Shown: positions 1-61,911 of the stretch, in pieces
Position numbering within the stretch: position 1 is the first letter of the stretch
Layout of the letters: every line of letters starts with the position of its first letter
Origin: Sphyrna mokarran
Lineage: Eukaryota
Direction of reading: 5' to 3'
DNA length: 64,000 bases
NCBI GenBank assembly: GCA_024679065.1
Contig: JAGIQG010000006.1
Span: forward strand, 8,308,001-8,372,000
Program-made: the position numbers and the translations under genes
The notes under the pieces: model-generated
The model's input: only the letters and a program-made list of their open reading frames with translations
The model's database searches: none
Told to the model about the DNA's origin: nothing

Positions 1-46
1 TTTACGACCAGATATAGAGCCTTTAATTCTATGGTTTTACTATTTA

Positions 47-1828
47 GAACATAGAACATAGAACACTACAGCACAAACTGGCCCTTCGGCCCACAAGTTG
101 TGCCGAACACATCAAAACCTACCCAGCCATAGACCTATCTATAACCCCCAATCCCATTGGATCCCATATACTCATCCAGAAGTCTTTTAAAAGACCCCAG
201 CGAGTTCGCCTCGACCACCACCGACGGCAGCCGATTCCATTCACTCACCACCCTCTGAGTGAAAAACTTTCCCCTAGCATCCCCTCTGTACTTGCTTCCC
301 TGCACCTTAAATCTGTGCCCTCTCGTCGCGACCATTTCAGCCCTGGGAAATAGTCTCTGAGAGTCCACCCTATCTATTCCTCTCAACATCTTGTAAACCT
401 CTATCAGGTCGCCTCTCAACCTTCGTCTCTCCAGGGAGAACAGTCCCAGCTCCCTCAACCTGTCTTCATAAGGCATGCCTCCCAATCCAGGCAACATCCT
501 TGTAAATCTCCTCTGCACCCTTTCAATAGCTTCCACGTCCTTCCTATAGTGAGGCGACCAGAACTGCGCACAGTACTCCAAGTGTGGTCTGACAAGGGTC
601 CTATAAAGCTGCAGTATTACCTCCTGACTCCTGAACTCAATCTCTCGATGAATGAAGACCAGTACACCATAAGCTTTCTTAACCACATCCTCCACCTGGG
701 AGGCCGATTTGAGAGTCTTATGGACCCGGACCCCAAGATCCCTCTGCTCTTCCACACAGCTAAAACTCCTACCTTTGATAGTGTACTCATTCATCCCGTT
801 GGATCTGCCAAAATGGACCACAACACATTTATCCGCGTTGAAGTCCATCTGCCACTTCTCCGCCCAGTCTTGCATCCTGTCGATGTCATGCTGCAACTTC
901 TGACATCCCTCCAGACCATCCACAACACCACCGACCTTCGTGTCATCGGCGAACTTACTCACCCATCCCTCCACTTCCTCATCCAGGTCATTTATGAAAA
1001 TGACAAACAGCAAGGGTCCTAGAACAGATCCCTGGGGCACTCCACTGGTGACCGACCTCCATGCAGAAAAAGAGCCATCCACAACCACCCTCTGCCTTCT
1101 GCAGGCAAGCCAGTTCTGGATCCACAAGGCCAAAGCCCCTTGGATCCCATGGCCTCTCACCTTCTCAAGAAGTCTTGCATGTGGGACCTTGTCAAATGCC
1201 TTGCTGAAGTCCATGTACACCACGTCCACTGCTCTTCCTTCGTCAATATGTTCAGTCACATTTTCAAAGAACTCAATTAAGCTCGTAAGGCACGACCTGC
1301 CTTTTACAAAACCATGTTGACTATTTCTAATCAACCTAAACTTCTCCAAATGCTCGTAAATCTTGTCCCTCAGAAGACTCTCCATCAGCTTACCAACCAC
1401 TGAGGTCAGACTCACCGGTCGGTAATTTCCAGGACTATCCCTGTTCCCTTTCTTGAAAATAGGGACCACATCCGCAATCCTCCAATCCTCCGGAACCTCT
1501 CCCGTCTCCATCGACGACGCAAAGATCATCGCCAGGGGCTCTGCAATGACATCCCTCACCTCCCACAATAACCTGGGGTACATCCCATCTGGTCCCGGAG
1601 ACTTGTCTATCTTGATAGCATTTAAAAGTTCTAACACATCCGCTTCCTTAATATCTACATACTCAATCTTTTCAGTCTGCCGCAAACTTGTAGTGCATCC
1701 TCCCAGATCACTTTCCACTATGAATACTGAGGCAAAGTACTCATTAAGCACCTCTGCCATTTCTTCCAGTTCCATACAGACATTTCCCCCTTCACCTTTT
1801 ATAGGTCCTATCCCTTCTCTTCTCATCC
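47..1828 (-). mobile_element. CR1/HER1-type LINE, 5'-truncated, with an uninterrupted 563-codon RT ORF (135-1826)
   Basis: ORF has [39 protein letters not shown] and FADD RT motifs; 3' UTR stem (ggcccttcggccc) and (ATAGAAC)n tail at ~47-64. Confidence 0.95.
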
Positions 1829-1903
1829 TTATTTTTGAAAACTCTGTACATATTTGCTGGTGAACTCTTTATTTTGAACACTCTGTTTCTCTGAGTATCA
1901 TTA

Positions 1904-4632
1904 TAGAATCATAGAATCATAGAAAATCTACAGCACAAACAGGCCCTTTAGCTCATAAGTTGCACCAATCATATCTCTACCTTCTAGGCTTAACTATAAC
2001 CCTCAATCCTATTAAATCCCATGTACTCATTCAGAAGTCTCTTCAAAGATGCTATCAAATTTGCCTCCACTACACCGACGGCAGCCGATTCCATTCAATC
2101 ACCACCTTCTGAGTGAAAAACTTACCTCTAACATCTCCTCTGTATCTACTTCCCAGCACCTTAAACCTGTGTCTTCTTGTGGCAGCCATTTCAGCCCTGG
2201 GGAAAAGTCACTGAGAATCCACCTGATCAATATCTCTCATCATCTTATCAACCTCTATCAAGTCACCTCTCATCTTCATCTCTCCAAGGAGAAAAGACTG
2301 AGCTATCTCAACCTATCCTCAGAAAGCATGCTACCCAATCCAGGCAAAATCCTTGTAAATCTCCTCTGCCCCCTTTCTATGGCTTCTACATCCTTCCAAT
2401 AATGAGGCGACCAGAACTGCACACAGTACTCCAAGTGGGGTCTGACCAGGGTCTTATATAGCTGCAGCACTATCTCCCGACTTCTAAGCTCAATTCCTCG
2501 ATTATGGAGGCCAGTACACCATACGCCTTCTTAACCACATCCTCTACATGCAAAGCTAATTTGAGAGTCCTATGAATCTGGACCCCAAGATCTTCCTGAT
2601 CTTCCACACTGCTAAGAGTCTTACCCTTAATATTATATTTCTTCATCCCATTGCATCTGCCAAAATGGACCATTACACATTTATCTGGGTTGAAGTCCAT
2701 CTGCCACTTCTCCACCCAGTCTTGCATCCCATCTATGTCTCACTGCAACTTCTAACATCCCTCCAAACTATCCACAACACCTCCGATGTTCGTGTCATCG
2801 GTGAACTTCCCAAACTATCCCTCCACTTCCTCATCCAGGTCATTTACAAAAATCACCAACAGCAAGGGTCCTAGAACAGATCCGTGGGGCACCCCACTGG
2901 TGACTGACTTCCATGAAGAAAAAGACCCATCTACAAACGGTCTCTGCCTTCTGCGGGCAAGCCAGTTCTGAATCCACAAGACAACAGCCCCTCGGATCCC
3001 ATGCCCCCTCACTTTCTCAATGCGCCTTGCATGGGGGACCTTATCGAATGTCTTGCTGAAGTCCATATAAACCACATCCACTGCTCTTTCTTCATCAATG
3101 CGTTTAGTCACATTTTCAAAAAACTCAACCAGGCTCGTAAGGCACGATCTGCCTTTAGCAGAGCCGTGCTGACTAATTTTGATCATACTATACTTCTTTA
3201 AATGTTCATAAATTCTGTCTCTCAGGATTTTTGCCATCAACTTACCAACCACTGAGGTTAAACTCACCGGTCGATAATTTCCTGGGCTATTTCTACTCCC
3301 TTTCTTGAAGAAAGGAACCATATCCACAATCCTCCAATCCTCCGAAACCTCTCCGGTCGCCATCGATGACACAAAGATACAAAGAACAAAGAGCAACACA
3401 GCACGGGAAACAGGCCCTTAGGCCCAACAAGCCCGCGCCGCCGAGGCTCATCGTCCGAGGCTCTGCAATCTCTTCCCTCGCCTCCAACAGTAAACTGGGG
3501 TACATTCCATCCAGTCCCGGCGATTTATCTAACTTGATGCTTTTCAACAGCTCCAACACATCCTTTTTTTTAATGTCAACATACTCAAGTTTTCAGTCTG
3601 TTGCAAGCCTGCACTATAATCACCCAGATCCTTTTCCACTGTGAATACTGAAGTAAAGTATTCATTGAGCACCTCTACTATTTCTACTGTTTCTATACAA
3701 ACTTTCCCACCATCAACTTTTATAGGTCTTATTCCTTCAGACCTTATCCTTTTACTCTTCATGTACTTGTACCTTAGGCTTTTCCTTAATCTTACCTGCC
3801 AAAGGTCTTCTCATGACCCCTTCTGGCTCTCCTAATTTCTTTCTTAAGCTCCTTCCTAGAAGTTGTATATTCCTCCAGATCCCTAACATTACCTAGCTCT
3901 CTGAACCTTTTGTACACTTTTCTTTTTGACTAGATTCATTATAACTTTTGTGCACCACAGTTTCTGTAACCTACCATAACTTCCCTGTCTCATTAGAATG
4001 TTATCGTGCAGAATTCCAGACAAACATTCCTTGAAAATCTGCCACATTACTTCTGTATGTTTTCCCGAGAAAACCTTCTTCCAATTTATTCTTCTAATTC
4101 CCTGCCTGATGGCTTCATATTTCCCCTTACTCCAGATGAATACTTTCCTAGCCTGCCTGATCCTATCCCTCTCCAATGCAAATGTAAAGGAGATAGAATT
4201 ATGACCACTATTCCCAAAATATCCTTCCACTGAGAGATCTGACACCTGTCCAGGTTCATTACCCAATACCAGATTGAGTGCAGCCTCTCCTCTTGTAGGC
4301 TTATCCACGTACTGTGTCAGGAAACCCTCCTGAACACACCTAACAAATTCCTCCCCATCCAAACCCCTTACCCTAGGGATATTCCAATCGATATTTGGGA
4401 AATTAAAGTCTCCCATCACAACAACTCTGTTATTATTACACTTCTCTGGGATCTATTTCCCTATCTGCTCCTCAACCTCCCTGTTACTATTGTGCGGCCG
4501 CAAGTAAAGACCCCTTCCTGTTCCGAACGTCCACCCACAGAGACTCTGTAGACAATCCCTTCACAGCATCCACCTTCTCTACAGCTGTGACACTATCCCT
4601 GATGAACAGTGTCACTCACCCGCCTCTTCTGC
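1904..4632 (-). mobile_element. Degenerate CR1 LINE (C-terminal APE endonuclease plus RT, frameshifted)
   Basis: ORF fragments 3889-4419 (GDFNFPNIDW, endonuclease), 3544-3762, 2815-3399, 2470-2727; (ATAGAATC)n tail at ~1904-1924. Confidence 0.93.
3378..3445 (-). mobile_element. ~70-bp 3'-end-only CR1 insertion nested in the RT region of the previous LINE
   Basis: acaaagaacaaagagcaacacagcacgggaaacaggccc...gcccgcgccgccg is the reverse complement of the 3' ends at 9345-9415 and 22095-22150 and interrupts the host ORF. Confidence 0.85.
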
Positions 4633-4823
4633 CTCATAAAGTCATACAGTGCAGAAAAAGCCTTTTTTCTTATCGTATCTGTACCTATAATAATCACCAC
4701 TAAAGGCACATGAATCCCATTTTCCAGTAATTATCCCATATCCTTGAATGTTATGGTGTTTCAAGTCTCGTCCAAATGCTTTTTAAAGATTCTAAGATTT
4801 CCGGCCTCCACTACCTTCCCAGT

Positions 4824-7250
4824 CATAAAGTCGTAGAGGTTTACAGCATGAAAACAAGCCCTTCGGCCCAACTAGTCTAGGATGCCCAGTTTCTTAATCC
4901 CTAAGCTAATCCCAGTTGTCCGCGTTTGACCCATATCCCTTTACACCCGTCTTACCCATGCAACTGTTTAAATGCTTTTTAAAAGATCCGCCTCCACTAC
5001 TATCACTGGCAGCTTGTTCCAGACACTCACCACCCTCCGTGTGAAAAATTGTCCCTCTGGACTCTTTTATATCTCTCCCCTCTCACATTAAACTTTATGC
5101 CCTCTAGTTTTAGATTCCCCTATCTTTGGGAAAAAATGTTGACATTCATGCTCCTCATTATTTTATAGACCTCTAAAATCTATAAAATTTTATTATATTA
5201 ATAATAAATAAATAAATAAATTAATTAATTAGGGGTAATTAAGCTTCCTATGCTCCAGGGAAACATAGAACATAGAACAATACAGCACAAACAGGCCCTT
5301 CGGCCCACGAGTTGCGCCAATCACATCTACCAATCCACAGACCTATCTATAACCCCCTATCCTATTCATTTCCATATACTCATCCAGAAGTCTCTTAAAA
5401 GACCCCAGTGAGTTTGCCTCAACAACCTCCGACGGCAGTCGGTTCCATTCACTCACCACCCTCTGAGTGAAAAACCTACCCTGACATCTCCTTTGTATTT
5501 GCTTCCCTGCACCTTAAATCTGTGTCCTCTTGTAGTGACCATTTCAGCTCGGGGAAATAGTCTCTGAGAGTCCACCCTATCTATTCCTTATATGCCTCTT
5601 AACCTACGTCGCTCCAGTAAGAAGAGTCCCAGCTCCCTCAACCTATCTTCATAAGGCCTGCCTCCCAATCCAGGCAGCATCCTTGTAAATCTCCTCTGAA
5701 CTCTCTCAATAGCCTCTACATCCTTCTTATAATGAGGCAACCAGAACTGCACACATACTCCAACTGGGATCTGACAAGAGTCTTATAGAGCTGCATCATT
5801 ACCTCCTGACTCCTGAACTCTATTCCTCGATTAATGAAGGCCAGTACACCGTACGCCTTCTTGACCGCTTCCTCCACCTGCGAGGCCGATTTAAGAGTCC
5901 TATGGACCTGGACCCCGAGATCCTTCTGCTCTACAACACTGCTAAGACTCCTACCTCTTATATTGTACTCCTTCATCCCATTATTCCTGCCAAAATGGAC
6001 GACTACACATTTATCTGCGTTGAAGTCCATCTGCCATTTCTCTGCCCAGTCTTGCAGCCTGTCTATGTCCCAAACAAGTTTCAGTTTATCCAACCTCTCC
6101 TTGTAACTCAAACCATCAAGTCATGGCAGTATCCTAGTAAATCGCCCCTGCATTCTTTCTAGTTTAATAATTTCCTTTCTATAATAGGATGAACAGAACT
6201 TTACACGGTATTCCAAGTCTGACCTTACCAATGTCTTGTACAACTTCAACAAAATGTCCCAATTCCTATATTCAATGTTCTGACCAAAGAAATCAAGCAT
6301 GCCAAATACCTTCTTCACTACCCTATCCACCTGTGACTCCACTTTTAAGGAGCTATGAACCTGTATCCTTGGATCTCTTTGTTCTATAATTCTTCCAACA
6401 CTCTACCATTAACTGAGTAAGTCTTCCCCTGGTTCGACCTACCAAAGTGCATCACACTCGCATTTATCTAATTTAAACTCCATTCATCAGTCCATTGGCC
6501 CAATTGATCAAGATCCCATTGCAATCTTAGATAACCTTCACTACCCATTATGCCACCAATCTTGGTGTCATCTGCAAACTTACTAACCATGCCTACTAAA
6601 TTCTAATCCAAATCATTAACATAAATGATAAATAACAGTGGACCCAGCACCAATCCCTGAGGCATAGGCCTCCAGTTTGAAAAACAACCCTCTACAACTG
6701 CTTTCGGTAATCAAGCCAATTTTGTATCCATTTAGATTCCTCATCCTGAATCCCCGTGAGATTCAATCTTATGCAACAATCTACCATGCAGTACCTTGTT
6801 AAAGGCCTTGCTAAAGTTTATGTAGACAACATCAACTGCATTGCCCTCATCTACCTTCTTGTTTACCCTTTCAAAAAATTCAATCAAATTTGTGTGATAT
6901 GATTTTCCACTCACAAAGCCATGCTGACTGTCCCTAATCAGTCTTTGCCTCTCTAAATCCCTGTAAATCCTGCCTCTCAAAATACCTTCCAACAACTTAC
7001 CCACTCACTGGCCTGTAGTTCCCAGGCTTTTCCCTGCAGCCCTTTTTAGACAAAGGCACAACATTTGCCACTCTCCAATCTTCAGGTACCTCATCTGTGA
7101 CTATCGATGATTCAAATATCTCTGCTAGGGGACCTGCAATTTCCGCCCTCGCCTCCCATAATGTCCTAGGATACACTTCATCAGGTTCTGGGGATTTATT
7201 TACCTTGATGCACCTTAAGGCTTCCAGCACCTCCTTCTCTCCAATATGTA
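4824..7250 (-). mobile_element. Degenerate CR1 LINE interrupted by a nested CR1 at 5263-6069
   Basis: RT fragments 6997-7250, 6741-7004, 6121-6342; host sequence ...ctccagggaaaca|aaacaagtttcag... resumes after the insert. Confidence 0.88.
5263..6069 (-). mobile_element. Nested 5'-truncated CR1 3' fragment
   Basis: DIDRLQDWAEKWQMDFNADKC... RT C-terminus; own (ATAGAAC)n tail at 5263-5280. Confidence 0.88.
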
Positions 7251-7254
7251 CACG

Positions 7255-9415
7255 GGAGAGGGGCCTGATGTCTGGTGCCGGCTTTGAGAAATTTGAGGAC
7301 CCGTTAAAGGAAATAATCATTACGAGGGAAGAGGTGTTGGGGCTTTTAGGCAGCATAAAGACTTATAAAGCTCCGAGGCCTGATGGCATTTACCCCAAGC
7401 TGCTAAGGGAGGTGAGAGATGACATTGCTGGGCCTCTGACGCAAATCTTTGTCTCTTCTTTGGACACAGGTGAGGTGTCAGAGGACTGGAGGATAGCAAA
7501 TGTAGTACCGTTGTTTAAAAAGGGACAAAGGGATAACCCAGGGAACTATAGGCCGGTGAGCTTGACTTCAGTTATAGGTAAGCTAATGGAGAGGATCCTC
7601 AGGGGCAGGATGTATGAGCATCTGGAGCGCTGCGATCTGATCAGGGATACGCAGCGTGGCTTCGTTAAAGGGAGGTCGTGCCTTACGAATCTAGTGGAAT
7701 TTTTTGAAGAGGTGACAAAAACGGTTGATGAAGGACAAGCCATTGATGTCGTCTACATGGATTTCAGTAAGGCATTTGACAAGGTTCCTCATGGTAGGCT
7801 GATAAAAAAGGTGAAGGCGCATGGTATACAGGGCCAGGTATGTAGATGGGTTGAGAACTGGCTTGGGAGGAGGAGACAGCAGGTAGTAGTGGAAGGCTCT
7901 TTTTCCAACTGGAGGTCTGTCACTAGTGGTGTGCCACAGGGCTCTGTACTAGGACCCCTTCTATTTGTGTGTATATAAATGACTTGGAAGAGGGGGTAGG
8001 TGGTGTGATCAGCAAATTTGCTGATGACACTAAGATGCTTGGATTGGCGGGTACTGAGGAGCAGTGCCAGGCAATATAACAGGACATAGATAGGCTGGTA
8101 GATTGGGCAGATAGATGGCAAATGGAATTTAATCCGGATAAATGCGAGGTGATGCATTTTGGCCGGAATAATGTAGAGGGGAGTTATAGGATAAAAGGTA
8201 AACCTATCCGGAGTATAGAGAAGCAGAGAGACCTGGGGGTGCATGTTCACAAGTCTCTGAAAGTGTCAGTACAGGTGAAGAATGTGATAAAGAAAGCGTA
8301 TGGTATGTTAGCCTTCATAGGAAGGGGTATAGAATACAAGAGTAGAAGTCTGATGTTGCAGGTGTATAGAACGTTGGTTAGGCCACATCTGGAGTACTGC
8401 ATCCAGTTCTGGTCGCCGTACTACAGGAAGGATGTAGAGGCCCTGGAGAGAGTGCAGAGGAGATTTACCAGAATGCTGCCTGGTATGGAAGGGCTGTCTT
8501 ACGAGGAAAGATTGAAAACACTGGGATTGTTTTCCCTTGAAAGACGTCGGCTGAGAGGGGATCTTTTAGAGGTATATAAGATTATGAGGGGTATAGATAG
8601 AGTAAATGGTGGTAAGCTTTTTTCCACCATTAAAAATGGATAGAACGAGGGGTCACGGGCTCAGGGTGAGGGGGGCTATGTATAAGACGAATATTAGAGG
8701 CCAGTTTTTCACACAAAGGGTAGTGGGGGTGTGGAATGCACTGCCGAGTAAGGCGGTGGGAGCAGGCACGCTAGGGTTGTTTAAGGGTCTCTTGGACAGC
8801 CACATGAGCGGTCTGCAGATAGAGGGATATAGTAGGACTGTCTAAATATCGGGAGCTTTGGGACGACCAAATAGTATTAGAATATCTTTCAGTTTTGTCT
8901 TAGGGATTTCTATCCCTGAGTTTTTCGCATGTTTAATTAAGTCTTATTTGTTATCCACAGGCAATTCGGTCCACCTTGACCAACAAGGTGCATGCACTTG
9001 GCAGGTCGTGCGAGGGCTGCTCTTGGATGTTGCTTCAGGAGTGGCCTAGTGCTTCACGTCATCAGTGTATGCTTAAACTGGACCATCTGATGGGCAACAT
9101 GACAGCTCAGAGACTATCGCTGTTACTGTGCAGACACATGGATTTGGGCCTGTGTCTGCGGGAGTTTGCGCGTTCTCCCCGTGGTTGCGTGGGTTTTCTC
9201 CGGGTGCTCCGGTTTCTCCCACATCCCAAAAATGTGCTCTTAGGCTGATTGGGTAATAAATTGTCCCTATATTGGTCCCTATATGGGAATCTTCCACAAT
9301 AGGCATAGCCTAAGGTCATGGTTATGTCATTAAGACGTTAGGACGGCGGCACGGGCTCGTTGGGCCGAAGGGCCTGTTTCCTGTGCTGCGTTGCTCTTTG
9401 TTCTTTGTTCTTTGT
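7255..9415 (+). mobile_element. CR1 LINE, 5'-truncated, with an extended 3' UTR containing a V-SINE/HE1-like core
   Basis: RT ORF pieces ~7290-7978, 8122-8643, 8606-8845; SINE core ttctccccgtggttgcgtgggttttctccgggtgctccggtttctcccac at ~9175-9225; (TTCTTTG)n tail at ~9395-9415. Confidence 0.92.
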
Positions 9416-9556
9416 TGTTCTCAAGATATCACTATTTATTTCCCCAAGTTTCCAAATCTTTCATGTTAACCATGAAGAACCATGGCCCCGGCACTCAGCC
9501 TGAGCCGCCACACTTTGTTTTCTGTTTTGCAGTCGCTGGTAGATTTATCTCCTTAC

Positions 9557-9625
9557 CTTTCTCTTGTTGAGACCTTGTGAAGTTTATAACCGCGTAATCT
9601 AGATTATTTCCAGCTCCTTGCAAAT
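9557..9625 (-). CDS. Gene A cytoplasmic exon 3 (69 nt) with ITIM: (D)LQGAGNNLDYAVINFTRSQQEK
   Basis: Long polypyrimidine tract ...ttattcctttggtag| acceptor and |gtaagg donor; LDYAVI fits ITIM (S/I/V/L)xYxx(I/V/L). Confidence 0.88.
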
Positions 9626-12600
9626 CTACCAAAGGAATAAAAGTAGAAGAAAAGATGGATGTTTATTCATGGAGAAGTATGGATGAAGTTAGGACAGTTT
9701 AAAACTCCTAAGCCAGGATGAAATAACTATGAAAGAATGTGGTGAATTACAATTTGTGATTGAGGATCAAACATGGCTCTTATAAACCTTTTATTATTGA
9801 AGTCTCTTCACATCTCCTGATTGGATTTGTCACTGACAATCTCACAATGCACCCGCATTCTGGTCTCCCCCACAAAATTAGCTAGAATAAATGCTGGCCC
9901 AGTTGATGACGCCCACATTCCTGAATAAATTAAAATAAAAAGGAATGACAGGAACTGAAGAAAAAACAAGCTTTGGACCAATCAAGGACATGAAGCATTG
10001 ACTGCTGAGTGAATTTGGGCAGTATTTTTGGTATCATATTTTGAACAGTAAATTGGTAAAGTATCCATCCATTGTACACGCCAGGAAGGCTGAGGTCAAT
10101 CCTTATTATTGACTCAAGATATTCCTGAATCAGCAACGAAGGCATGTAAACGGAATTAAAATACTAACCAGCCATGAATAGCCTTGAGGGGCTGAATGGC
10201 CTCCTCCTGTTCTCACATAGGGGAGCTATTTTAATTTGCATTATTGCAGATAAAGTGCAGCGACACAGTCTGACTTCTGTCTGGTATTTGTGGGTAAAAA
10301 TCCTGGAACTCCCTCCCTAGCAGCATTGTGGATGTATCTACACTGCACAGATTGCAGTAGTTCAGCATGGCAGCTCACCACCTCCTCCTCAAGGGACAAT
10401 TAGAGATGGGCAATAAATGCCAGCGATGCCCTTGTTCAGCGAAAGAATAACTTAAAAACCATGACCTATCACAGGCTTTTCATTTCCTCCCAAAGATGTG
10501 TGGGTTAGGTGGATTGGCCAGGCTAAATTGCCCCTTAGTGTCAGGATAAATGCATAGGATTATGGGGATAGGGCCTGGGTAGGATTGTGGTCAGTGCAGA
10601 CTGGATGGGCCGAATGAACTCTATGATTTTGTTCTTGCTCCTTACCCTTCTCCGTCTGTAACTTTTCCCCATCCTAATGAAAGGTCCTTGAGCTGAAATG
10701 TGAACTCTTGTCTTCAATCTCTGTTTCTGTTGATGCTATCTGACTGTTGGATATTTCTCGCATTTTCTTTTCTTTATTTTAAGCTTATAGTTTGTACTTT
10801 GAAGAATGTTCTCAATGCAAAGTGAGTTGTTTCTATACCTGTTTCCGCTTGCTGTGACGCTGGACCAATGGCACTGTAAACAGGAATCTCTCCAACTCCC
10901 TGTGGATCTGTCAAAGATACAGAAATGTCACAGAGTCAAGTGCTCTTCCCAATACTTTTTAAAGGTTGTAAGGTTTCTGGTGTCCACAACCTTCCCAGGC
11001 AGCACATTCCAGATTCTCACCACTCTCTGAGTGACAACATACAGCCCAACTATACAACAGGACTGTAGCCATGTTTCACCTCTGCAGCTCACCCCGGTTC
11101 CTACACTCCTCCAAGCCTGTCCTCTTGCATTCCCCAGTTTTCACCATTCACTATTGTCATCCATGGCAGCAGGCCTTTGTGCGTACAGTAGCATGGTGGT
11201 TATGTTACTGGACTAGCAATCCAAACTTTGGGATGAAGGAGTTCGAAGGCCTCTGTGGAATTTGAATTTAGTTAATTAAATACATCTGAAATTACAAAGC
11301 TAGTATCAGTAATAGTGGCCAGGAACTCCTGACTTCTTGTTAAAAACCCATCTGGTTCTCTAATGCCTTTAGAGAAGGAAATCTGTTGTCTTTACCTGGT
11401 CTGGTCTACATGTGACTCCAGAGCCACCGCAATGAGTTGACACTCAACTGCCTCCTGAAATGACACACAGTTTCAAGGGCAACTAGGGATGGGCAACAAA
11501 TGCTGTCCAGCAGCATTGCCCACGTCCCACAATTGAATAAAGAAAAAAATACGAACAAATGTCAACAAACGATGACCTTGTGACCCCACTTCCCATAGAA
11601 GAATGCCATGGAAGGATATTATTTGTGCGGTCACAACTAAAAAGCAGCTCCTCTCGGACAACTAAGGAAGACAATAAATGCTGGATACTTCTAGCATTTT
11701 CTAATTTTATTTTAAGCTTATCATAGAATTATAGAATATACAGTTCAGAAGGAGGCCATTCGGCCCATCGAGCCTGCACTGACAACAATCCCAAACAGGT
11801 CCTGCCCCATAACCCCATATATTTATTCTGCTAATCCCCTTGGACACCGAGGGCCAATTTTGCATGGACCATCTACCTTCTCCGCACCTTTTTGGACTGT
11901 GGGAACACACAGAGGAAACCCACGCAGACACGCAAACTCCATACAGTCACCCGAGGCCAGAATTGAACACAAGTCACTGTGCCACCATGTGGTCTCAAGG
12001 CTTGTACTTTGAAGAATGTTCTCAATGCAAAATGAGTTGTCTCTATACCTGTCTCTGCTTGCTGTGACGCTGGATTAACAGCACTATTAACAGGAATCCC
12101 TCCAACTCCTCGTGGATCTGTCAAAGATATGGAAATGTAAAATGGGATTCTTACAGAAATCAAAAGGAAATCAGGCATGCAGGATTTTTAACAGCCCAGT
12201 GCTTCACAGCACATGAATGAATTAAAAAAAAACTGGTGACCTAATACTCTCGAGTTCCCTCCCTAAACCTCGCAATCTCTCCTCAGCTATCCCCTCCTTT
12301 ATTAAATTCTTTCAAACATACCCTCTGACCAAGGCACTATTAGTTATATCATGTGGCGTAGTTTCCAATACTGTTAGATAATCGCTCCTGTGTTCTTATG
12401 TTAAAGCTGTAATATAAATACAAACTGTTGTTCGATGGAGGAGGAGTATGTGTATCTTTAGGTGGGAATTGTGGAACAGAATCAACAGAAAAAGAGCTGG
12501 AGAGGGTCAAAGCGCAAAGTGAAGGGCTTGAGAGCTCTGCAGAAAGAGCAAAATGAGGAAGATACAAGGCTCTGAAAACCAACCATTGGAAGGAACAATG

Positions 12601-15600
12601 TTTGTGAAAGTAGCTAGTCTGGAACATCCTTTTGGTGGAATTTCTCATGTCCCACCAGACATTTGCCTGTCCAAAGAGGCTCCATGTCAGGATCAAAGGC
12701 TGAGCTATTCGCCCTGAGCCCTCAGTGCCATCCAAACCTGGCACAGGAGTCTTCCCTTACCCACCTCCACTCCGTGGGCCACTTGCTCGGTAACATGGTG
12801 GTACAGGGGCATGGGTGGCACAACGGTTAGCACTGCTGCCTCACAGCGCCAGGGACCTGGGTTCAATTCCAGCCTCAGGTGATTTGTCTGCATAGGTTTC
12901 CTCCAACATTCCAAAGATGTGTGGGTTAGGTTGATTGGCCATGGTGAATTGCTCTTTGTGTTAGGGGGATTAGCAGGATAAATATTTGGGGGTATGGGGA
13001 AAGAGTCTGGACTGGGGCAGGTACAATGGACTGAATGGCCTCCTTGTGCACTGTGGAGGTTCTATGATTCAATGATGGACAGCAACACTACTAGGGTGGG
13101 TTCTATCTTGCAGAGGGGGGATTGGAGGGGATGGGGATGGGGTGGGTAAGGGTTGGTGCTTCGGACCTTGTTCTTTGGGTCAGATTTCATTTAACACACA
13201 CAGCAGACATTTCTGGCATTCATTCTCAGGGTATGGGTGAGGCTGGCAAGGTTGGCATTGACTGCCCATTCCTAGAAGGTGATGATTGAACTGTGGGCCT
13301 GCAGTTGAAGGAATTTGATGTGGGTTACATGAGAGAGATCAAAGTTTATTCTACATAACACCTCAATTGCAATTGAACTGCATCCTAGTACAGTAATCAT
13401 TAAAGTAAAGTTTATTTATTAGTGTCACAAGTTGACTTACATTAACACTGCAATGAAGTTATTGTGAAAATCCCCTAGTCGCCACACTCTAGTGCCTATT
13501 TGGGTACACTGAGTGAGAATTTAGCATGGCCAATGCACCTAACCAGTATGTCTTTGGACTGTGGGAGGAAACAGGAGCACCCAGAGGAAACCCACGCAGA
13601 CATGGGGAGAATGTGCAGACTCCACACAGACAGTGACCCAAGCTGGGAATTGAACCTGAATCCCTGGCACTGTGAGGTTGCAGTGCTAATCACTGTGCCA
13701 CTGTGCCACCCATTTGTGAGGGGAGAATTCTTACGTTTAAACTCATCGAAAGGCTAATGGAATGTTGAATTTACCTTAACCCAAGAAGTCTGAATTTCAA
13801 AGAAGTTTAGAGTTATGTAAAATTCAAGTTAACCACAGCTGGAGTAACTGGGTGGGATTTCACAGCCTTGCTCATCCCAAAACTGTAAAATCCTACCTGA
13901 GGTCAATGGCCGCCCCTCCAATGGCCTGCTCCAATTTTGATAGGGGAGGAGGTTAGGGGGAGATGGGCCGGGTGGTAAGATTTCAGTCACTCCGTTGAGT
14001 TCTGGGAACCCAGGAAGGATGTGTTGACCTTGGAAAGGGAGTACAGCAAAGATTCACCTGAATCATCTTACACATCCTTGTCAGAGCATGTGTTTGTATA
14101 GACTGGCTGTGATTAAGGGTTATCCAGATTTGAATCATTTCTATTCTCTCTCTGCAGATGCTGGCAGACCTGCTGAAATTTTTCGGCATTTCGCTTGTGC
14201 TGGTATAGCCTAGATTTGTGTTCCTTTGATAGAAGGTGAGTTGATGTGATTGAGATGGTTAAATGGTGGTTTGATATGAGAAAAAGAAACTATTTCCTCT
14301 AGACTGAGATGATTCTTATGGGAAGTGGGCAGGTAAGTGGAGCTGGGTCCACGAATAGATTTTATTGAATGGTGGAGCAGGCTCGAGGGAGGCCAAATGG
14401 CCTACTCCTGCTCCTAGTTCTTATGTTCTTATGTTGTTTATGATGACATATTGTGATATAATGTTTGAGATAACATTAAAGATCCTGTAGAAAGTTGTAA
14501 GATTAGCTTTTTTGTCAGTCACCCTTTTGCTAGTTCCAAATATTTTTCCCAAGCTACTGGGCTTCCTTTAATCTATGGAAACTAGACGATGCAACAAAAT
14601 TATCACCAATCCCTGACAGCAGTAGAATTTGTATTGTGAAGCTCACCTCTTTTCAACACCCAGATAACAAAACCAAATAGAAGAAAGGAGATAATGAACA
14701 GAGGGGGCACAATGTAATGGACGAGAGTGGACTTGTCCTTATCTTCATCAGGGAGGTGGATCTGACGGACATCTCTCCCGAGTTCATTTACAGCCAAACA
14801 GTTATACGTCCCTCTCAGTACTGGGTTACGAAACTCTCCTGTGATTTGATACTTGTCTGGCTCTTGTGTGACTGTTGTGTCAGGGCTGTTCCCGGGCACT
14901 GAGCTGCCCTCAGGATCGATCCATGTGATATTGGCAGGTGGCACCGCTTCAACCCGGCACACGATGCTCTCTCCAGTTACATTATCGCTCACTGTCGATA
15001 GATTCAAGATGGTGGCTGGGACTTGGGAAAGGAAAAGGACAATGAGGTTAATACCATTTATCGATCCTCACAGGAATATAGAACAGGGATTGGCCATTTA
15101 GCCTCTTCAGCCTGTTTAACCATTCAATAAGATGAGAAATGACCTGTGGCCTAGCTCCATTGAACTGTCTTTGTCCATATCCCTTATATGATAGGAAGAC
15201 AGGTTGTTACTTGAATGAGTGTAAATTGAGAAAGGTGGATACTCAGCGAGACCTTAGAGTCCTTGTGCATCAGTCACTGAAAATACCACTACATTACCAC
15301 TACACCAGAATCATCCCTTTGTCTCTTTGGACTCAACTATCTATTTCCAAACAGATGGAGGTTGGATTATAATATTCAGTGAGGAACCAGATCATCTTCT
15401 GCCATTTAGCTTTTAACAGTAAAGAAAACTATTAATCATGAAAAGTGTGACTAGAATATAACATTCCTTCATTCCCACTTATCTTCGTAAACGTTCAGCA
15501 TTTATAAGAATAACACTGATTACAGAAATATATTTTATGAGTATAAAGTTTAGTAAAGTATCACAGTCCCAATAAATCAAGGCTAAAATGTGATCAGACG

Positions 15601-18600
15601 CTCCCACACTTAAACCAAGGGTTTCGCTAATCTTGGCATGGATTGAATTAATCCGATTTTATCCATGGACGTTGACAGCCAAAGCAGCCAGGGAATGGAG
15701 GATAAAAGAGTCTCCTGAAGACTCACATGTTTCCCGCCGAGGAAATGACATCTCACCACAAGGTGGAAGATCCCCCACCTCTGCCCGTGTTGGTCACAGC
15801 AGCCAATCATTCAGTGTCTATTGACTCACTAGCTCTGTTTCCCCAAGATGTGGTCATTGGTACCAGGTTATTTTGTGTTTGTCTATAAAGGTTCACCTCC
15901 TATCTACAGCCCACTCGCTTGGAATTGACCTGATTTAACTTTTCACAGTGCAGAAGAGGGCATTCAGCCCTTAACAGCCACATGGACTTTTACCAGAATT
16001 AACGCAATACCCTCATATTTTACCCCTACCATTTTTGGGCGGCCAAAGGTTTCTTAAGTTCTGAATTTGATGGGAAAACTGTTGTAATTCAATGATTGAT
16101 TTTCACATTGCGAGTTTGACACTCGAATCTCCCACATTCTGTGCAAAGCAGCGTTCACAATCACGAATATCATTAAAAGTTTGGGGGGGTGGAGCCGATC
16201 CATGTAAAAGTCTGTCAGTTCTGGAACTCTGTGAAGGAGCAATGGCCCTGAGCTCTCAGCCTACAGTTTGCTGGCGGGCGATTGAGCTAACCAGCCTGGG
16301 GTCCTCACAGTGCTGCCCCTCCAGCCATCCGCCCACGGACTGATCGCGGACCCAACGAGAATTCATGGGCCAGCCTCGATCCTGTCATCATCCAAGAGTG
16401 CCGCAATCTCCACCCCCACCTACCCCCAGCAGTGACGATCCCTCTTTGGCAGATCCAGTCCCCTCGGGAGGCAGACCCCACTCAGCAGACATCCCACCTC
16501 CCAGGAGACCCCACTCCCAGCAGATTGCCCCACGGGAGGCAGACCCACCTGACAAAACACCCCTCTCCCCCTGGCTCGACCTGTTCACTGACCTCCCTCC
16601 AGCCCCAATCGATCACAACGCAGATTGGCAGTGGGATCCCCCCCATTCCCACCAATTGTCCCCTCGGCCCCACCCACTTGGCACAGCCCAGTAGGCCCTG
16701 CCCCTTGGCACTGCCGTGTGCCTGGTGGCAGTGTCAAGGTGTCCCCTGGGCATGGGCTCTTTGCCCCTTTGGCAGGTCCAGGTGACACAATCGGGAACTG
16801 TGATGATGCCCAAACCAGGGGGCAGCCCTCCCACCGTCCAACCCCCATGGGTCTCCAGCTACTTCCATGAAAGTGGGTGCTACTCTAAACCCCCCCGGAG
16901 TGAAGTTGTACTGGTGTTGGGAGTGGGGGGGAATGTTAGTGGGCTTGGAGAATTCAGTCCCAGGCCCCATTATCACATTTAATTAACATTAAAAATAGAT
17001 TTAAATCACTCACCTGCTGCTGCCTCTGGTTTCCATTGGGGTCCTGACTGCGCCAGATCTTCGGCGCTGGGTGATGTGTGTCTGTCAGGGACACACACGC
17101 AAATCCCGTGAATCGGTCACCAGTGATTCTCCCATCCCACCGGGCTAAAATTTAGGAAACTGGGGGGAAATTTAGCCTGGCCAATCCACCTAACCCATAA
17201 ATCTTTGGACTGTGGGAGGAAACCACACCAACACAGGAAGACCATCAAACTCCACAATGTATAAAATGATCAAAGCTGGAAATTGCCAGCACTGTGAGGC
17301 AGTAGTGCAAACCACTGTACCACCTGCTACAGAATGTTTTATCCACATCCCCATATCACAAACATTGATGTTTTCTTACCAACAACCTGGAGTCCCATCA
17401 CATCCTGAGTTACATTTTCCTGATTCCAGTTCCTGACGTGTACGTGACAGAAATAATCATTGGTGTCGTTCAGCTGCAGGTTCCTCATCCTGAGGGAAGC
17501 GTTTCCTTGGGTTGGGTTTCCAATCAGTTCATATCGATCTCCTTCATTCACAGTGACTGGGTCATTGTAGCCAGAACCAGCCCCCAGGGAATGAGAGTAA
17601 TTAAAAACAGTGGAAAATTTTTTTTGATCCCTCTTCATCCAGAGGACAGTGAGGGAGCTGAGAGAATGCTGAGGGGGATTGAAGGTGCAAGACAGAGTGA
17701 CAGAATCTCCCTTCACCCCAGTCACTGCCCGTGAATCGCTCTGACCTGAGGGAGTAAGGATTTGAAAGAACAGATATTAATTATCATGTAGTTTTATTAA
17801 ATGTAATCTCTACAATGTTTATCTCCCCTGTGATATCCCTAAAGACAGATAACACCGACCTAGATTTATACAAATACCTGGAAGTTAATGTTCCCTTCAG
17901 GAAATGAAGTTGGAAAAGTGCTGAGATCTTGGAGGGAAATTGCTCTGGAGGATGTGACGGCACTGAGATAGAAAAGGCCATGGAGGGATTTAAGGAGCAG
18001 GATGATGATGTTAAATAATGAGGAAATGGGTCTTGTTCCTCTGGAGAGGATTTCCTGCCGGGTCTGATGGACGATGTGATTGGTGGGATGAAAATGGATT
18101 GTGCTGGTGGCTTTTGGGACAGCATTGGGATAAAACCATGGATAAGTTATCTCAGCCTGCCCGTACTAGACAAAGACATACTCCCATTACTCTCAATATC
18201 TACAACTGTCCCCCTCATGGGATAGCATGGAGACACAGAGGTTAGCACTGCTGCCTCACAGTGTCAGGGATCTGGATTTGATTCCTGACTTGGGTTACTG
18301 TTTGTGTGGAGTTTGCACATTGTCTGTGTGGGTTTCCTCTGAGTGCTCCAAATTCTCCCACATTCTGGAAGATGTGCTGGTTAGGTGCATTGACCAGAAT
18401 AGGCTCCGGACTGTGGTGACTAGGGGAATTTCACAGTAACTTCATTTCAGTGTTAATGTAAGGCTTATTTGTGATTAATAAATGAACTTTAACTAAATTC
18501 ACAGCAGGCAGGACCCAGGCATTCACAAAGATGTAAATCTCAGTCTTGTACTTTCCCATTTCAAATCCATTTTACTCCAGAAAGCCAGTCTGTGAAGGAT

Positions 18601-21600
18601 GATCCTCAACCTCTTCTTAGTCTTATATTTAATTACCGAGTGAATAATTACAAACAAATATCTCCAAACACAATTGCACAGTTATAGAAATGTGTTTTGA
18701 AGATGTTCAGAAAAAACCTCTCCTTGCAGATCATTAAACACAACTCATATCCAAATAGCAAATTAAATCCTCTTTAAATCTCTCTGGTGTGTGGGCTAGG
18801 TCGGTTAGCCATGTTAAATTGTCCCTTAGTGTCTTAATCCAGTGGTGGGTTGGGGGCTTGTAACAAAGTCCAAAAAGCAAACACTTCCCATTTGGCTCAT
18901 GGGCTTCCCTGGGAATCCCTTCCATGGACATCTCTTCCATGGGGGTCCCACTCAGCACTGGATTGTGGGAACTGGGAAGCCTGCTGAGAGTTACCCCTTG
19001 TGTTTGTTGCTGACCTGCCGTCCCCACACCTTCTCTCCTGGGACTCCCCGTCCCGCAATCATTCACCTGTGCCTGGCTCCATTGGTTAACGTGGTATTTG
19101 AGTGGGTGTAGTAGCAGCAGCAACCACATCCCCCTCAGTGGCACCACTGAGCCATGAAGAGTATCTGCCCTCTGATTGGGACCTCACCCAGGGACTTGGT
19201 CTCAGGAAAGGCCCAGTGCTGCCCTGCTGAGTGCCTGATTACACTGAATGGTACAAGCCTTCCTAAATTAGGTGATACTGGTTCTCCAGTCAGCGGGTGA
19301 AATCACCATCACGTTAAATTCCGCCTAATAATTACCTGTTCTGGGTTTAAAATTAATCACTTATTTAACAAACGCATAACTCCTATTTGTACAATCCATC
19401 ACCAGTATCTACAAATGCCTCTACATGAGCTCAAATTATTATCCAATGTGTGCTTCTCCCCTTGTATCTCATTAACTTTTGTGAAATCCCCTGCGAGGTC
19501 CATGGGAAAGTATTGATTGATTTCCCTGTAGGACTCATTGAGTATGAGTTCCCCTGGTAACAGGCAGTTCCTGTCTATTCCTGAGGCTTGTATAAGGCAG
19601 GCCTTGGACTGGGCCTGCTGATCTGCAGTCCCTGGCAGGCCCTAGTAGTTTGGAGATGCCTGATTGGGGCTTCATTACACTCTGGATGTGCTGCATCTGC
19701 TGCTGCCAGACTGAGAGCTGAGAGTTACTGGAGAGGGAAGCTGCTGCTTGGACAGACAGAGAGAGGCCCCGGGGCCTGGAGGCTCACAGGTCTCACAGCC
19801 TGCAATGGAGAGAGGGAAACTGGGCAGGGCCTGAAAACTGCTCTGAGTGCAATTGGAGAATCCCAGCTCAGGATCAATATTAAATCAGTTTTACATTTCT
19901 ACACAATGTGAAACATGACAAGTCCAAATCCCTCCCTCTGAAATCCGCACACCAGATGTGTCAATGTGAGCCATTCAGTTATGTCCTCACTTTTACAGGG
20001 GAACCAGAGCTGAGTAATAAATCTAGTTTGATATCTAGTTTGCCCGGTACCACCCTGGTTTAAGGGCAATCCATTCCGCAGTGGCCCAGTGAATCATCAG
20101 TGATTCAGGAAGAAGATCGGTTCTTCCTGATCGGTTGAAGGAAATAAGGATTACGAGGATAGAGGTGTTGGGGCTGTTAGGCAGCTTAAAGACGTATAAA
20201 GCTCCAGGACCTGATGGCATTTACCCCAGGCTGCTAAGGGAGTTGAGGGAAGACTTGGCTGGGCCTCTAACGCAAATCTTTGTCTCTTCCTTGGACACAG
20301 GTGAGGTCCCAGAGGACTGGAGGATAGCAAACGTAGTACCGTTGTTTAAAAAAGGTCAGAGGGATCACCCAGGGAACTATAGGCCGGTGAGCTTGACTTC
20401 AGTTATAGGTAAGCTAATGGAGAGGATCCTTAGGGACAGGATGTATGAGCATCTGGAGTGCTGCGATCTGATCAGGGATACGCAGCATGGCTTCGTCAAG
20501 GGGAAGTCTTGTCTTACAAATGTAGTGGAATTTTTTGAAGAAGTGACAAAAACAGTTGATGAAGGACATGCTGTTGATGTCGTCTACATGGATTTCAGTA
20601 AGGCGTTCGACAAGGTTCCTCATGGTAGACTGAGAGAAGGTGAAGGCGCATGGGATACAGGGCCAGGTATGTAGATGGGTCGAGAACTGGCTCGGGAGGA
20701 GGAGACAGAGGGTAGTAGTGGAAGGCTCTTTTTCCGGCTGGAAGCCTGTCACTAGTAGAGTGCCACAAGGCTCAGTACTAGGTCCTCTTCTATTTGTGGT
20801 CTACATAAATGACTTGGAAGTTGGGGTAGGTGGTGAGATCAGCAAATTTGCTGATGACACCAAGATGCTTGGATTGGCGGGTACAGAAGAGCAGTGTCAG
20901 GCAATACAACAGGAATTAGACAGGTTGGTAGACTGGGCAGATAGATGGCAAATGGAATTTAATCCGGATAAATGCGAGGTGATGCATTTTGGCCGGAAAA
21001 ATGTAGAAGAGAGTTATAGGATAAAAGGTAAAACTATACGGAGCATAGAGACGCAGAGAGACTTGGGGTGCAGGTTCACAAGTCTCTGAAGGTGTCCTCA
21101 CAGGTGGAGAAGGTGATAAAGAAGGCGTATAGTATGTTAGCTTTCATAGAAAAGGGGATAGAATACAAGAGTAGGAGTTTGATGTTGCAGTTGTATAGAA
21201 CTTTGGTTAGGCCTCACTTGGAATACTGCGCCCAGTTCTGGTCTCCATACTATCGGAAGGATGTGGAGTCCTGGGAGAGAGTGCAGAGGAGGTTTACCAG
21301 GATGCTGCCTGGTATGGAAGGACTGGCTTATGAGGAACGATTAGATAGACTGGGGTTGTTTTCCCTTGAAAGACGTCGGCTTAGAGGGGATCTCATAGAG
21401 GTGTATAAGATTATAAGGGGTATAGATAGAGTAAATGGAGGTAAATTTTTTCCACCTTCAGAAATGGATAGGACGAGGGGTCATGGCCATAGGGTGAGGG
21501 GGGCTATGTATAAGACGAATATTAGAGGGCAGTTTTTCACACAAAGGGTAGTGGGGGTGTGGAATGCACTGCCGAGTAAGGTGGTGGGAGCAGGCACGCT

Positions 21601-24600
21601 GGGGCTGTTTAAGGGCCTCTTGGACAGCCACATGAGCAGTATGCAGATAGAGGGATATATTAGGACTGTTTAACTACGGCTTTTTTTCCACAGGTAATTC
21701 GGCCCATACTTGACCAACATTGAGCATGCATTCGGCAGGTGGTGCGGGTACAGCTCTTGGATGTTGATTCATGGGTTGCCTGGTACCTCATGTCGTAAAT
21801 GCGTGCTTTATGTGGACCATCTGAAGGGCACCATGACAGCTCAGAGACTATCGATGTGGCTGTGCAGACACTTGGAATTGGGCCGGTGTCTGCGGGAGTT
21901 TGCGCGTTCTCCCCGTGGTTGCGTGGGTTTCTCCGGGCACTCCGGTTTCCTCCCACAACCCAAAAATTCGCTCTTAGGCTGATTGGGTAACAAATTGTCC
22001 CTATAGTGAGAATTTTCCATATTAGGAATAATATATATATTATTATATAGGAATAATAAAATAGGATAATGGATTTGCTACTATATAGTTATGACGGCGG
22101 CGCGGGCTCGTTGGGCCGAAGGGCCTGTTTCCCGTGCTGTGTTGCTCTTTAAAAAAAAAAAGATGTCCCATAAATTTCCTGGGATGGACGATAAGAATAT
22201 AGAACATAGAACATAGAACATTACAGCCCAGAACAGGCCCTTCGGCCTTCGATGTTGCGCCGACCAATTATGAACAAAAAAGCAATGACCCTCCAAACTA
22301 AATCATTCCCTTCTCTTCCATAAACTTATCAACTAACCTCTTAAACGCCACCAAACTTGGCGCATCTACAACTGCCGCAGGCAAGGCATTCCACTCCCTA
22401 ACCACCCTCTGGGTAAAGAGTCTACCTCTGATATAACTATCAGCATTGCTCACAAACCAAGAGTAAACTCTTTATCATCAAAACCCGACAGCACAAAAGG
22501 AGGGCATTCAGCCCATCGAGTCTGCACTGACCACAATCCCATCTGTCCCTGTAACCCCACACATTTACTCCACTAATCCCTCTAATTTACACATCCCGGG
22601 ACACTAAGACACAATTTAACATGGCCAATGCACCTCTGTAGCACATCTTTAAAACATTTGTGCTTGTGTTTGGATTAAATTTACATACAGTCTTATATCG
22701 AATTTGAAATATTCCTCACCTCTCATTATGAGATCTCCATGCTCCAATTGATAAGCTGCTCCGTTACCATCGAGCTCCATGCGACAGAAATATTTATGTC
22801 TTGTGTCCTCTTTATTCAGCTGTTTGATGATGATTGAAGCTTCGTTCTTCCTCGGGTTTCCCAGCGCTTGGTAACGATTATTAATATTCAGGATGACCAG
22901 ATTCTGAAACTGTCTGCCCGGTGCGTTTTGTGTTGGATAATTTGTATAATTAAATACCGCTTCCTTTCCTCTGAACCATTTAACCGTGATGTTGCCATTA
23001 TATCCCGAGTGAGGGTGAGTGAACTTGCAGAACAGAACAGTAGCTTTTCCTTCCCTACCCGTCACCTTCTCCGGTGTCTCCATGCTCCAGCCATTGTTAC
23101 TGAGAACTGGAAAACACAAAATGCTGTTTAAACACCGAACTGAGATGGGAGCTGTTACGGGACTCTGTCGGAAGCTTTCTTGTTCTACTCCCCTCAACTA
23201 ACCAAACAAAGTGACGGAGTGATTTGAAGATGAACTTTACAATAGCTATCGGCCCCTGAATATCCATTCAGAGTAAAGAATTCAGAGATATAAAGGCAAT
23301 TAAAATCTCAGCTATGATTACAAATAATTAACATACACCAATAACAGAATATGAGTTATCTCCATCCAATCACAGTTAATACTTCATGTAACATCATATA
23401 AAATGTAATATTTAAAACCAATCACAATCATCTTACACTTGCTTAATTATAATATCCAACAGTGGTGAGCTTTTTACTGCCTGATTTGAGTATTATTCTC
23501 CCCTATCTTTACACACTTAGACTGTGTCTACACACTCCAACATCGGTCCTTGTCCAGTGCATGATGTAAAAGACTTCTCCCAGCACAGTATCTTTCTCCC
23601 TTCTTTACCTGAAGGTCAAACTAGTTTCTTGTAATAACCACCTTGTAATTACACATTGTGTAAGCTTTGTGATTTGTCCATGTTAATCCTTTCACTGAAC
23701 ACAGTTATTCATGTGCTGATTATTTTCCTCCATAATTATTAATATGGGTATTGATCCGCCTCAAGAGGCAATGGTTCCAACCCTTCAGGATTGGCCAAGA
23801 GTCTCCAGCCTAAGAAATTATGTACTTGCCACAGAGGAACATAGAACATAGAACATAGAACATAGAACATTACAGCACAGTACAGGCCTTTCGGCCCTCG
23901 ATGTTGCGCCGGCCAGTGGACCCTCTAACCTAAACTATTCCAGTATCATCCATATGCCTATCCACCGAACATTTGAATGCCCCCAAAGTAGGTGAGTCCA
24001 CAACTGCTGCAGGCAGGGCATTCCACGCCCTCACCACCCTCTGTGTAAAGGACCTGCCTCTGACATCCGTCCTATAACTACCACCTCTTAATTTAAAGTT
24101 ATGTCTCCTCGTGTTGGTCATCACCATCCGAGGAAGAAGGCTCTCACTATCCACCCTATCCAGTCAGTGAAGTGCAGTGAAGGTTCACCAGACCGATTCC
24201 TGGGCAGGCAGGATTGATGTATGAGGAGAGATTGGGGGGACAATTCACTGGAGTTTAGAAGAATGAGAGAGAATCTAACTGAAATTTTTAAATTCTAATT
24301 GAGCTGGACAGACTGGATGAGGGATAATCTTTGCCCTAGCTGGTGTCTGGAACAAAGGGTCACATTCTCAGGATGTAGGGCAGGCCATTTGTTTTATTCA
24401 TTCATGGGAAATGGCTTTCAATGGAATAACATTTCAGAGGAATGTTAGGAGTCCCATCAGTATGGATCTGGAGTCACATGTAGGTCAGGCTCGGGTAATG
24501 AGGTCAGATTTCCTTCCCTAAAGGACATGAGTGAATCCAATGGGTTTGTTTATGACAACCAACATGGTCATCGTTAGAGATTTAAATCCAGATTTTTATT

Positions 24601-27494: not shown

Positions 27495-27559
27495 TCTCTT
27501 CACTCCTGCAGTACACAGAGCTCTCTGAAGGCTCAGCACCCACTCGACGGGTCTAATAT

Positions 27560-27666
27560 CATTGCTCACTATCTGATCTTGTTGCTTCCTTCAGTAAACT
27601 TGGTGTTAAACAAAAATACTGCTGAAATTTTGCAAGAATGCTGACCAGTTTAAAACGGGGAAGTGC
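27560..27666 (-). promoter_or_regulatory. Putative TATA-less myeloid-type promoter of gene A (PU.1/Ets, C/EBP-like, GATA motifs)
   Basis: GGGGAAGTG at 27657-27665, TTGCAAAA (- strand) ~27628-27635, GGAAG ~27585-27589, AGATAG ~27569-27574; motif matches only. Confidence 0.35.
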
Positions 27667-27704
27667 ATTCTAAGATGAATTCAAAAACTGGATTCGAAAT
27701 TTGT

Positions 27705-31590: not shown

Positions 31591-32069
31591 TTTTGTGGGC
31601 AGTACAGTGACATAGTGGTCAGCATTGCTGCCTCACAGCGCCACACTGAGGTCTGCACTCCTGAACAGTTACTTCATTCATTTGTTTCCCTGCTTCTCCC
31701 ACCAGCACCCCACACCACCCCCAGCTCCACCCCAGGCTGGACACCATGTTGCCTTCTCTGTGAAGAACTCAGCACACCCTGGATCCTTCAGCCTCATCAC
31801 ACTCTTCCTCCCACCTCATGAGCCCTGCACCAGGTTCAATTCCCAGCTTGGGTCACTGATTGTGTGGAATCTGCACATTCTCCCTGTGTCCCAGGTTTCC
31901 TTCGGCTGCTCTGGTTTCCTCCCGCAGTCCAAAGATGTGTGAATTAAGTGGTTTGACCATGTTGCACTGCCCCTTTTTATCTGTTAGTAAGAGATTTTGG
32001 CAGCATAAAATAAGTGTGGTGAAAAGAACAGGATATGGGGGTGGGGAGTGGGGGGGTCATTACAGCACT

Positions 32070-61836: not shown

Positions 61837-61911
61837 CTTGGGGAAGGAAAGGGACAATGAGGTTAACACCGATCCGTTGATCCTTACTGGAATATAGGAA
61901 CAGGGATTGGC

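Follow-up and report, generated by a model that had tools for sequence, protein, structure and literature searches.

Serially duplicated, predicted tail exons in a Siglec-15-related and likely inhibitory receptor gene of Sphyrna mokarran

The stretch of Sphyrna mokarran DNA analyzed here (64,000 nt, hereafter the window) carries a minus-strand gene for which we derived a nine-exon model in the order leader-V-V-C2-TM-tail, with a 495-aa open frame and GT..AG boundaries at all eight introns (Table 1). The predicted leader exon has a GT donor, and its reading frame stays open into the first Ig domain, V1. The C2 domain scored under the curated Pfam cut-off for Ig_3/I-set, and the only match of the C2-TM exon among longer proteins was a Mustelus protein, at 80%. 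There is no charged residue in the transmembrane segment (TM), and the product is predicted to be a type I protein (leader, Ig domains, TM).

Behind the TM, the three 69-nt segments described in the initial annotation were recovered as exons e1, e2, and e3, each lying between AG and GT, with a phase 1-1 frame that is open and translates as given there. The three-unit set was real but incomplete: the search left of the window that had been proposed for further units located a fourth, e4, and a terminal exon. All four units (69, 69, 69, and 72 nt) are multiples of 3 and symmetric in phase 1-1, as are the V1, V2, and C2-TM exons. The resulting cytoplasmic tail, likely disordered, comprises 105 aa with Tyr at positions 36, 59, 82, 91, and 99, the Tyr at 91 standing in a context that is not ITIM-like. 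In the 26.6 kb that follow the TM on the minus strand, eight open 69/72-nt candidates pass a loose splice filter, and Y-x-x-[ILV] is found in three of them, namely, e2, e3, and e4. The donors of e3 and e4 are near consensus, and those of e1 and e2 are without +4 A and +5 G. We considered e3 as the terminal exon, with read-through to a stop near 9495, and set this aside because its donor is near consensus and two further exons downstream match relatives; such a transcript may occur as a minor form. Reading on through the TM donor (window 14606-14646) would yield a short tail that has no Tyr before its stop, and the RefSeq model of the apparent orthologue in Scyliorhinus canicula contains the corresponding read-through and no tail units, a point against the present model; the read-through form may be a short-tail isoform, or the annotation may have a gap here. 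A 577-aa open reverse-transcriptase frame (window 138-1868, minus strand), presumably of a CR1-type LINE, is one of many copies within the e3-e4 intron.

Table 1. Predicted exons of the receptor gene and associated features (window positions, except for contig coordinates prefixed G000:C1215)
Feature	Position	Strand	Characteristics	Basis or location
Leader exon (predicted)	27446..27494	-	Coding part 49 nt, phase 1	tblastn with relatives' leaders
V1 exon	22720..23106	-	Siglec-15-like V-set	Pfam V-set; PDB best match Siglec-15
V2 exon	17380..17745	-	Second V-set	Pfam V-set, E 7.7e-19
C2-TM exon	14647..15021	-	C2-type Ig and uncharged TM, ends in phase 1	
Tail exon e1	12049..12117	-	69 nt, without Tyr, Asn at motif position	
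Dispersed repeat	11724..12001	-	SINE-like (assumed), within flank common to e1 and e2	
Tail exon e2	10839..10907	-	69 nt, PVYSAI, first Tyr motif	
Tail exon e3	9557..9625	-	69 nt, ITIM LDYAVI, Phe at +5	
Repeat-rich intron	1..9556	-	Extends past left window edge	
Tail exon e4	G000:C1215:8304148-8304219	-	72 nt, phase 1-1, SVYSNV	Left of window
Terminal exon (coding part)	G000:C1215:8299232-8299263	-	VIYATV, then stop	Left of window
C2-TM paralogue exon	36817-37203			Window
C2-TM paralogue exon	61455-61840			Window
C2-TM paralogue exon	G000:C1215:8410895-8411281			
C2-TM paralogue exon	G000:C1215:8434704-8435090			

The proposal that the tail was assembled from duplicated symmetric exons is borne out by shuffle tests and common flanks. 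Exons e1 and e2 are identical at 58 of 69 nt, and e3, compared without gaps, matches e1 at 34/69 and e2 at 33/69. In nucleotide alignments, the score of each pair among e1, e2, and e3 was reached in 0/2000 shuffles; with e4 included, all six pairs exceeded the shuffles (0/2000 for five pairs and 10/2000 for e3/e4), and at the protein level the result was weak for e1/e4 (70/5000) and e3/e4 (88/5000). The flanks reported as common to e1 and e2 were confirmed (12138-11679 versus 10928-10745) and are short, extending 21 nt upstream and ~95 nt downstream, with 19/21 nt identical upstream and 45/47 nt downstream. The repeat insertion reported in the e1 flank, ~278 nt long, is indeed absent at the corresponding site behind e2; it has 37 matches in 464 kb, 23 of them of at least 150 nt (self-match counted), and we take this dispersed repeat class to be SINE-like. 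Of the gapless alignment claimed for the three units, the equal lengths stand, but the SQQ of e2 and that of e3 are offset by one residue: aligned to the relatives' 24-aa units, e1 and e2 are one codon short before SQQ and e3 is one codon short after QQ. Judged by the 72-nt unit of relatives, the equal 69-nt length is in part coincidence and not a conserved trait. DNA searches of the genome, in which diverged copies would be missed, matched only e1 and e2 with e1 as the query and found a single copy each of e3 and e4.

In the ectodomain, the best PDB match of V1 was Siglec-15 (E 6.7e-18), with matching B- and F-strand Cys, and V1 keeps the F-strand Arg of a YFCR motif, aligned with Siglec-15 and CD33. 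V2 matched CD276 and then Siglec-15 in the PDB, and its F-strand Arg is missing. The best matches of bird Siglec-15 in the genome all lie in the present cluster, so the cluster may descend from a Siglec-15 ancestor. A V-domain tree of 125 columns, which does not resolve the base, placed V1 in a cartilaginous-fish clade (93/92), apart from a clade of tetrapod and lungfish Siglec-15 (90/90). Siglecs have one V-set domain followed by C2-set domains; the second domain here is a V-set. SIGLEC15 has a Lys in the TM and a short tail, whereas the present gene has an uncharged TM and a multi-Tyr tail, and the Lys-TM sits in a plus-strand neighbor. Mammalian SIGLEC15 adjoins SLC14A urea-transporter genes; all urea-transporter matches (10/10) were on contig C1, and the cluster is on C1215. 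CD33-related Siglecs are defined by a V-domain E-strand Cys, which CD33 has in our alignment and V1 does not. Considering the two V domains, the uncharged TM, the missing E-strand Cys, the urea-transporter genes located elsewhere, and the separate clade, we do not class the gene as SIGLEC15 or as a CD33-related Siglec, yet its predicted product would work like an ITIM Siglec.

The plus-strand neighbor with the Lys-TM is a V-V-C2 paralogue with almost no tail (G000:C1215:8213300-8226800), about 80-95 kb left of the window. It shares with the present gene 85 of 89 C2 residues (96%), 89% of V2, and 50% of V1, and the Lys-TM type recurs in many sharks, rays, and chimaera. On sequence grounds, this paralogue is likely the activating partner of the present gene. 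Inhibitory and charged-TM genes are adjacent in the same way among the paired receptors Siglec-5/14, Siglec-11/16, and Xenopus CEACAM, for which near-identical ectodomain parts are described in excerpts of PMC4042635, PMC5701461, and PMC5112662. These systems differ in Ig family, and in the shark pair V2 and C2 are homogenized and V1 is only 50% identical; by analogy, the shark pair resembles the paired Siglecs shaped by gene conversion, as far as the excerpts of PMC4042635 and PMC5701461 describe them. Across sharks and rays, the TM and tail of the Lys-TM paralogue are nearly invariant and its V1 is variable. The V1 of this paralogue is without the F-strand Arg.

RefSeq proteins of Heptranchias and Heterodontus contain the tail units found here. 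XP_067838215/216/218 (Heptranchias "Siglec-12" X1-X3) and XP_067884866 (Heterodontus "CXADR-like"), all automatically named, belong to the same V-V-C2-TM family and have the same 24-aa units, a Tyr-free first unit, and an x-I-Y-A-x-V end, but differ by species in unit number, order, and Tyr content. Units of relatives are mostly 24 aa (Heterodontus unit 1 has 21), and e3 and e4 correspond in order to Heterodontus units 2 and 3, with 52% identity over 21 aa and 48% identity over 23 aa, respectively. For a comparison of tails, we chose seven relatives from 37 proteins, leaving out those that were Lys-TM, short-tailed, incomplete, or extra isoforms, which together with the present gene gave eight Tyr-bearing tails. 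The first motif has Pro at Y-2 in 6/8 tails, in the form P-[VI]-Y-S, and Pro at Y-2 is also present in the Heterodontus counterpart of e3; x-I-Y-A-x-V is the final motif in 6/7 relatives' tails. From the membrane to the first Tyr, the seven elasmobranchs have 36, 37, 34, 36, 37, 37, and 38 residues, and Callorhinchus has 42. Tyr is missing from the first unit in 3/3 sharks, by three residue states (Asn here, His in Heptranchias, and shortened in Heterodontus). Rays and chimaera also have a stretch without Tyr that is about as long or longer; in a shuffle test, its homology to shark unit 1 was significant in just one of five non-shark tails.

These comparisons do not uphold the view that the three units form a series of off, partial, and full ITIM, since Pro at Y-2 is a conserved first-motif state (6/8 tails) and not that of a decayed ITIM. 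Nor do they uphold tuning of membrane distance: in 7/7 elasmobranchs, 34-38 residues separate the first Tyr from the membrane, and the value is still 37 in the Heptranchias isoform modeled with a unit skipped. Because this distance stays within a narrow range across the elasmobranch tails, the Tyr-less e1 is likely a fixed membrane-proximal spacer and not a dial.

The ITIM consensus is (I/V/L/S)-x-Y-x-x-(L/V/I), which LDYAVI, SVYSNV, and VIYATV all match. Typical Tyr spacings in tandem-SH2 ligands are close to ~23 residues, and those in the present tail are 23, 23, and 17. High-affinity ligands of the SHP2 C-SH2 domain are described in an excerpt of PMC12878756 as having an anionic -1, hydrophobic +1/+3, and aromatic +5 residue, as in the PD-1 ITSM. 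The e3 sequence L-D-Y-A-V-I-N-F fits this pattern, in support of e3 (a canonical ITIM in the initial annotation) as a strong inhibitory motif, and VIYATV fits the library motif of the same excerpt; the -2 residues that it lists do not include Pro. Overall, we consider it probable that e1 to e3 are predicted tail exons of a likely inhibitory Siglec-15-related receptor, in which e1 likely serves as a spacer and the Tyr-bearing copies likely dock phosphatases and can probably be skipped. Ligand binding would lead to phosphorylation of the tail Tyr residues by Src-family kinases, and phosphorylated e3 and the terminal motif, together with e4, would recruit SHP-1/SHP-2, so that activation would be damped. 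The spacing of 23, 23, and 17 would suit tandem SH2 domains, with the unit length setting the ~23. The Pro(-2) motif of e2 would be a separate conserved site. With a middle unit (e2 or e3) skipped, the tail would differ in how many motifs it has and of which kind, while the first Tyr would stay ~36 residues from the membrane and the ~23 spacing would be kept. The present gene would likely form a pair with the neighboring Lys-TM receptor and oppose it.

Exon skipping had been proposed to change both motif number and membrane distance; the former is a real possibility, and the latter is not supported. Among the three Heptranchias isoforms retrieved, one RefSeq model, X2, is X1 without exactly unit 2 (24 aa), and in X3 one of two V2 copies is missing instead. 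RefSeq models of a sister subfamily (14 in Narcine, 3 in Mustelus, and 3 in Leucoraja) also include forms that differ by whole tail pieces. Both observations, and the missing +4 A and +5 G of the e1 and e2 donors, argue against a constitutive multi-motif tail in which the duplicated exons are always included, phase 1-1 is merely what Ig-superfamily exons usually have, and skip isoforms reflect noisy splicing or faulty annotation. Such a tail is nevertheless a serious alternative that we only narrowly disfavor. The V1, V2, and C2-TM exons share the phase, so symmetry alone is uninformative on skipping, and Heptranchias units 1, 2, and 6 have like ends, so mis-mapped short reads could produce the X2 model. 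The near-consensus donors of e3 and e4 also fit constitutive inclusion, as do the isoform pairs X1/X2 of Narcine, Callorhinchus, and Conger, none of which differs in the tail. A 24-aa difference between Conger X1 and X2 was rejected as a tail skip, the last 126 aa being identical. On the gene models, e2 is the best candidate for a cassette exon, and the Tyr-bearing units can probably be skipped without a frameshift.

Regulated skipping that selects among off, partial, and full ITIM and shifts the motifs relative to the membrane appears unlikely. Every unit preserves the frame, one skip model exists in a relative, and PECAM-1 offers a precedent in the excerpted text of PMC5664058, but the distance of the first Tyr is conserved and is unaltered in that one skip model (37 in Heptranchias X2, as unit 1 is retained), the Pro(-2) motif is itself a conserved state, and unit 1 is present in all three Heptranchias models. 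Still less credible is a reading of e1 as a pseudo-exon, copied recently from e2 and now decaying, whose Tyr was lost by drift and which is seldom spliced in. Between e1 and e2, identity in the exons (58/69) is no greater than in the flanks (64/68; p 0.10 by Fisher test), so the pair gives no sign of purifying selection acting on e1; the two exons have in common a codon loss absent from relatives, and the within-species scores between units 1 and 2 (91 and 85) exceed those across species (55-75), all of which would suit a decaying e1. Against it, the splice sites and frame of e1 are intact, the Tyr-free first unit is modeled as coding in both Heptranchias and Heterodontus, and without e1 the first Tyr would lie at 13, compared to 34-42 in all seven relatives' tails. 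Also against decay, e1 prefers Heptranchias unit 1 (63 versus 55 with unit 2) and e2 prefers unit 2 (75 versus 61 with unit 1). Six of the 11 differences between e1 and e2 fall within codons 11-15 (post hoc p about 0.01). These patterns fit two histories of e1: an old duplicate that conversion has homogenized outside the motif, or Tyr loss that recurred after separate duplications. A further-reaching scenario, which we regard as doubtful in its entirety, is an ancient Siglec-15-related pair of cartilaginous fishes with a "ruler plus cassettes" tail: a duplicated motif exon, e1, would have been silenced at its Tyr, would have stayed so in spite of exchange with the adjacent copy, and would set the first signaling Tyr ~36 residues from the membrane, and regulated skipping of the other copies would pick between the conserved Pro(-2) motif, bound by an SH2 partner of its own, and the SHP-type ITIMs.

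ITIM tails on small spliced exons and paired receptors are already known, and orthologues of the present gene are modeled in RefSeq. In the excerpt of PMC5664058, PECAM-1 (CD31) has an ITIM tail on several short, alternatively spliced exons, and forms without exon 14 are unable to bind SHP-2; likewise, an excerpt of PMC5856374 describes CEACAM1 paralogues whose ITIM tails come from alternatively spliced short exons. PECAM-1 differs in its ectodomain, serial copies of one unit with an apparent spacer copy are particular to the shark gene, and skipping is proven for PECAM-1 but only modeled for the shark tail. A literature search, with most subscription journals outside its scope, found no paper on this shark receptor family or tail. 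The gene illustrates how duplication of one small exon can generate a multi-motif, predicted inhibitory tail, and unit number and Tyr content vary among shark lineages while the distance of the first Tyr stays fixed. This natural series makes it testable whether the distance of an ITIM from the membrane matters and what binds the conserved P-x-Y-S-x-V/I site, and the locus suggests that an inhibitory/activating receptor pair related to Siglec-15 is present across the cartilaginous fishes.

Further members of the cluster surround the gene. None of the four C2-TM paralogue exons is followed by tail units within 464 kb in a search in which diverged copies would be missed; their early TM residue is Arg in two and Gln in two (one of these frameshifted). 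The copy at 61 kb is frameshifted, and a V2 exon just right of the window ends with a stop. By these sequences, the cluster of C2-TM copies is one of birth and death. An 18.9-kb stretch with leader, V1, and V2 (window 15693-34560) is repeated at G000:C1215:8383993-8402840 with 99.4% identity; since the copy starts at a 100-N gap, it may represent the other haplotype, duplicated in the assembly. The sister subfamily, V-V-TM in architecture, lies on the same contig at G000:C1215:7190000-7240000 and 8010000-8096000. In its 7.2-Mb copy, the tail pieces match a Mustelus protein, some of them split over 100-150 nt, which suggests that this tail uses very small exons. Two flanking open reading frames had no Pfam match: one is low-complexity (L036:3185-3892, plus strand), and the other (L015:1-243, minus strand) matches an SLC5 transporter in the PDB, lies 130 kb left of the window, and is likely a multivitamin transporter gene. 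On the plus strand, a single V-C2-TM gene at G000:C1215:8269990-8281000 has the F-strand Arg and groups with Carcharodon "Siglec-15" (100/99).
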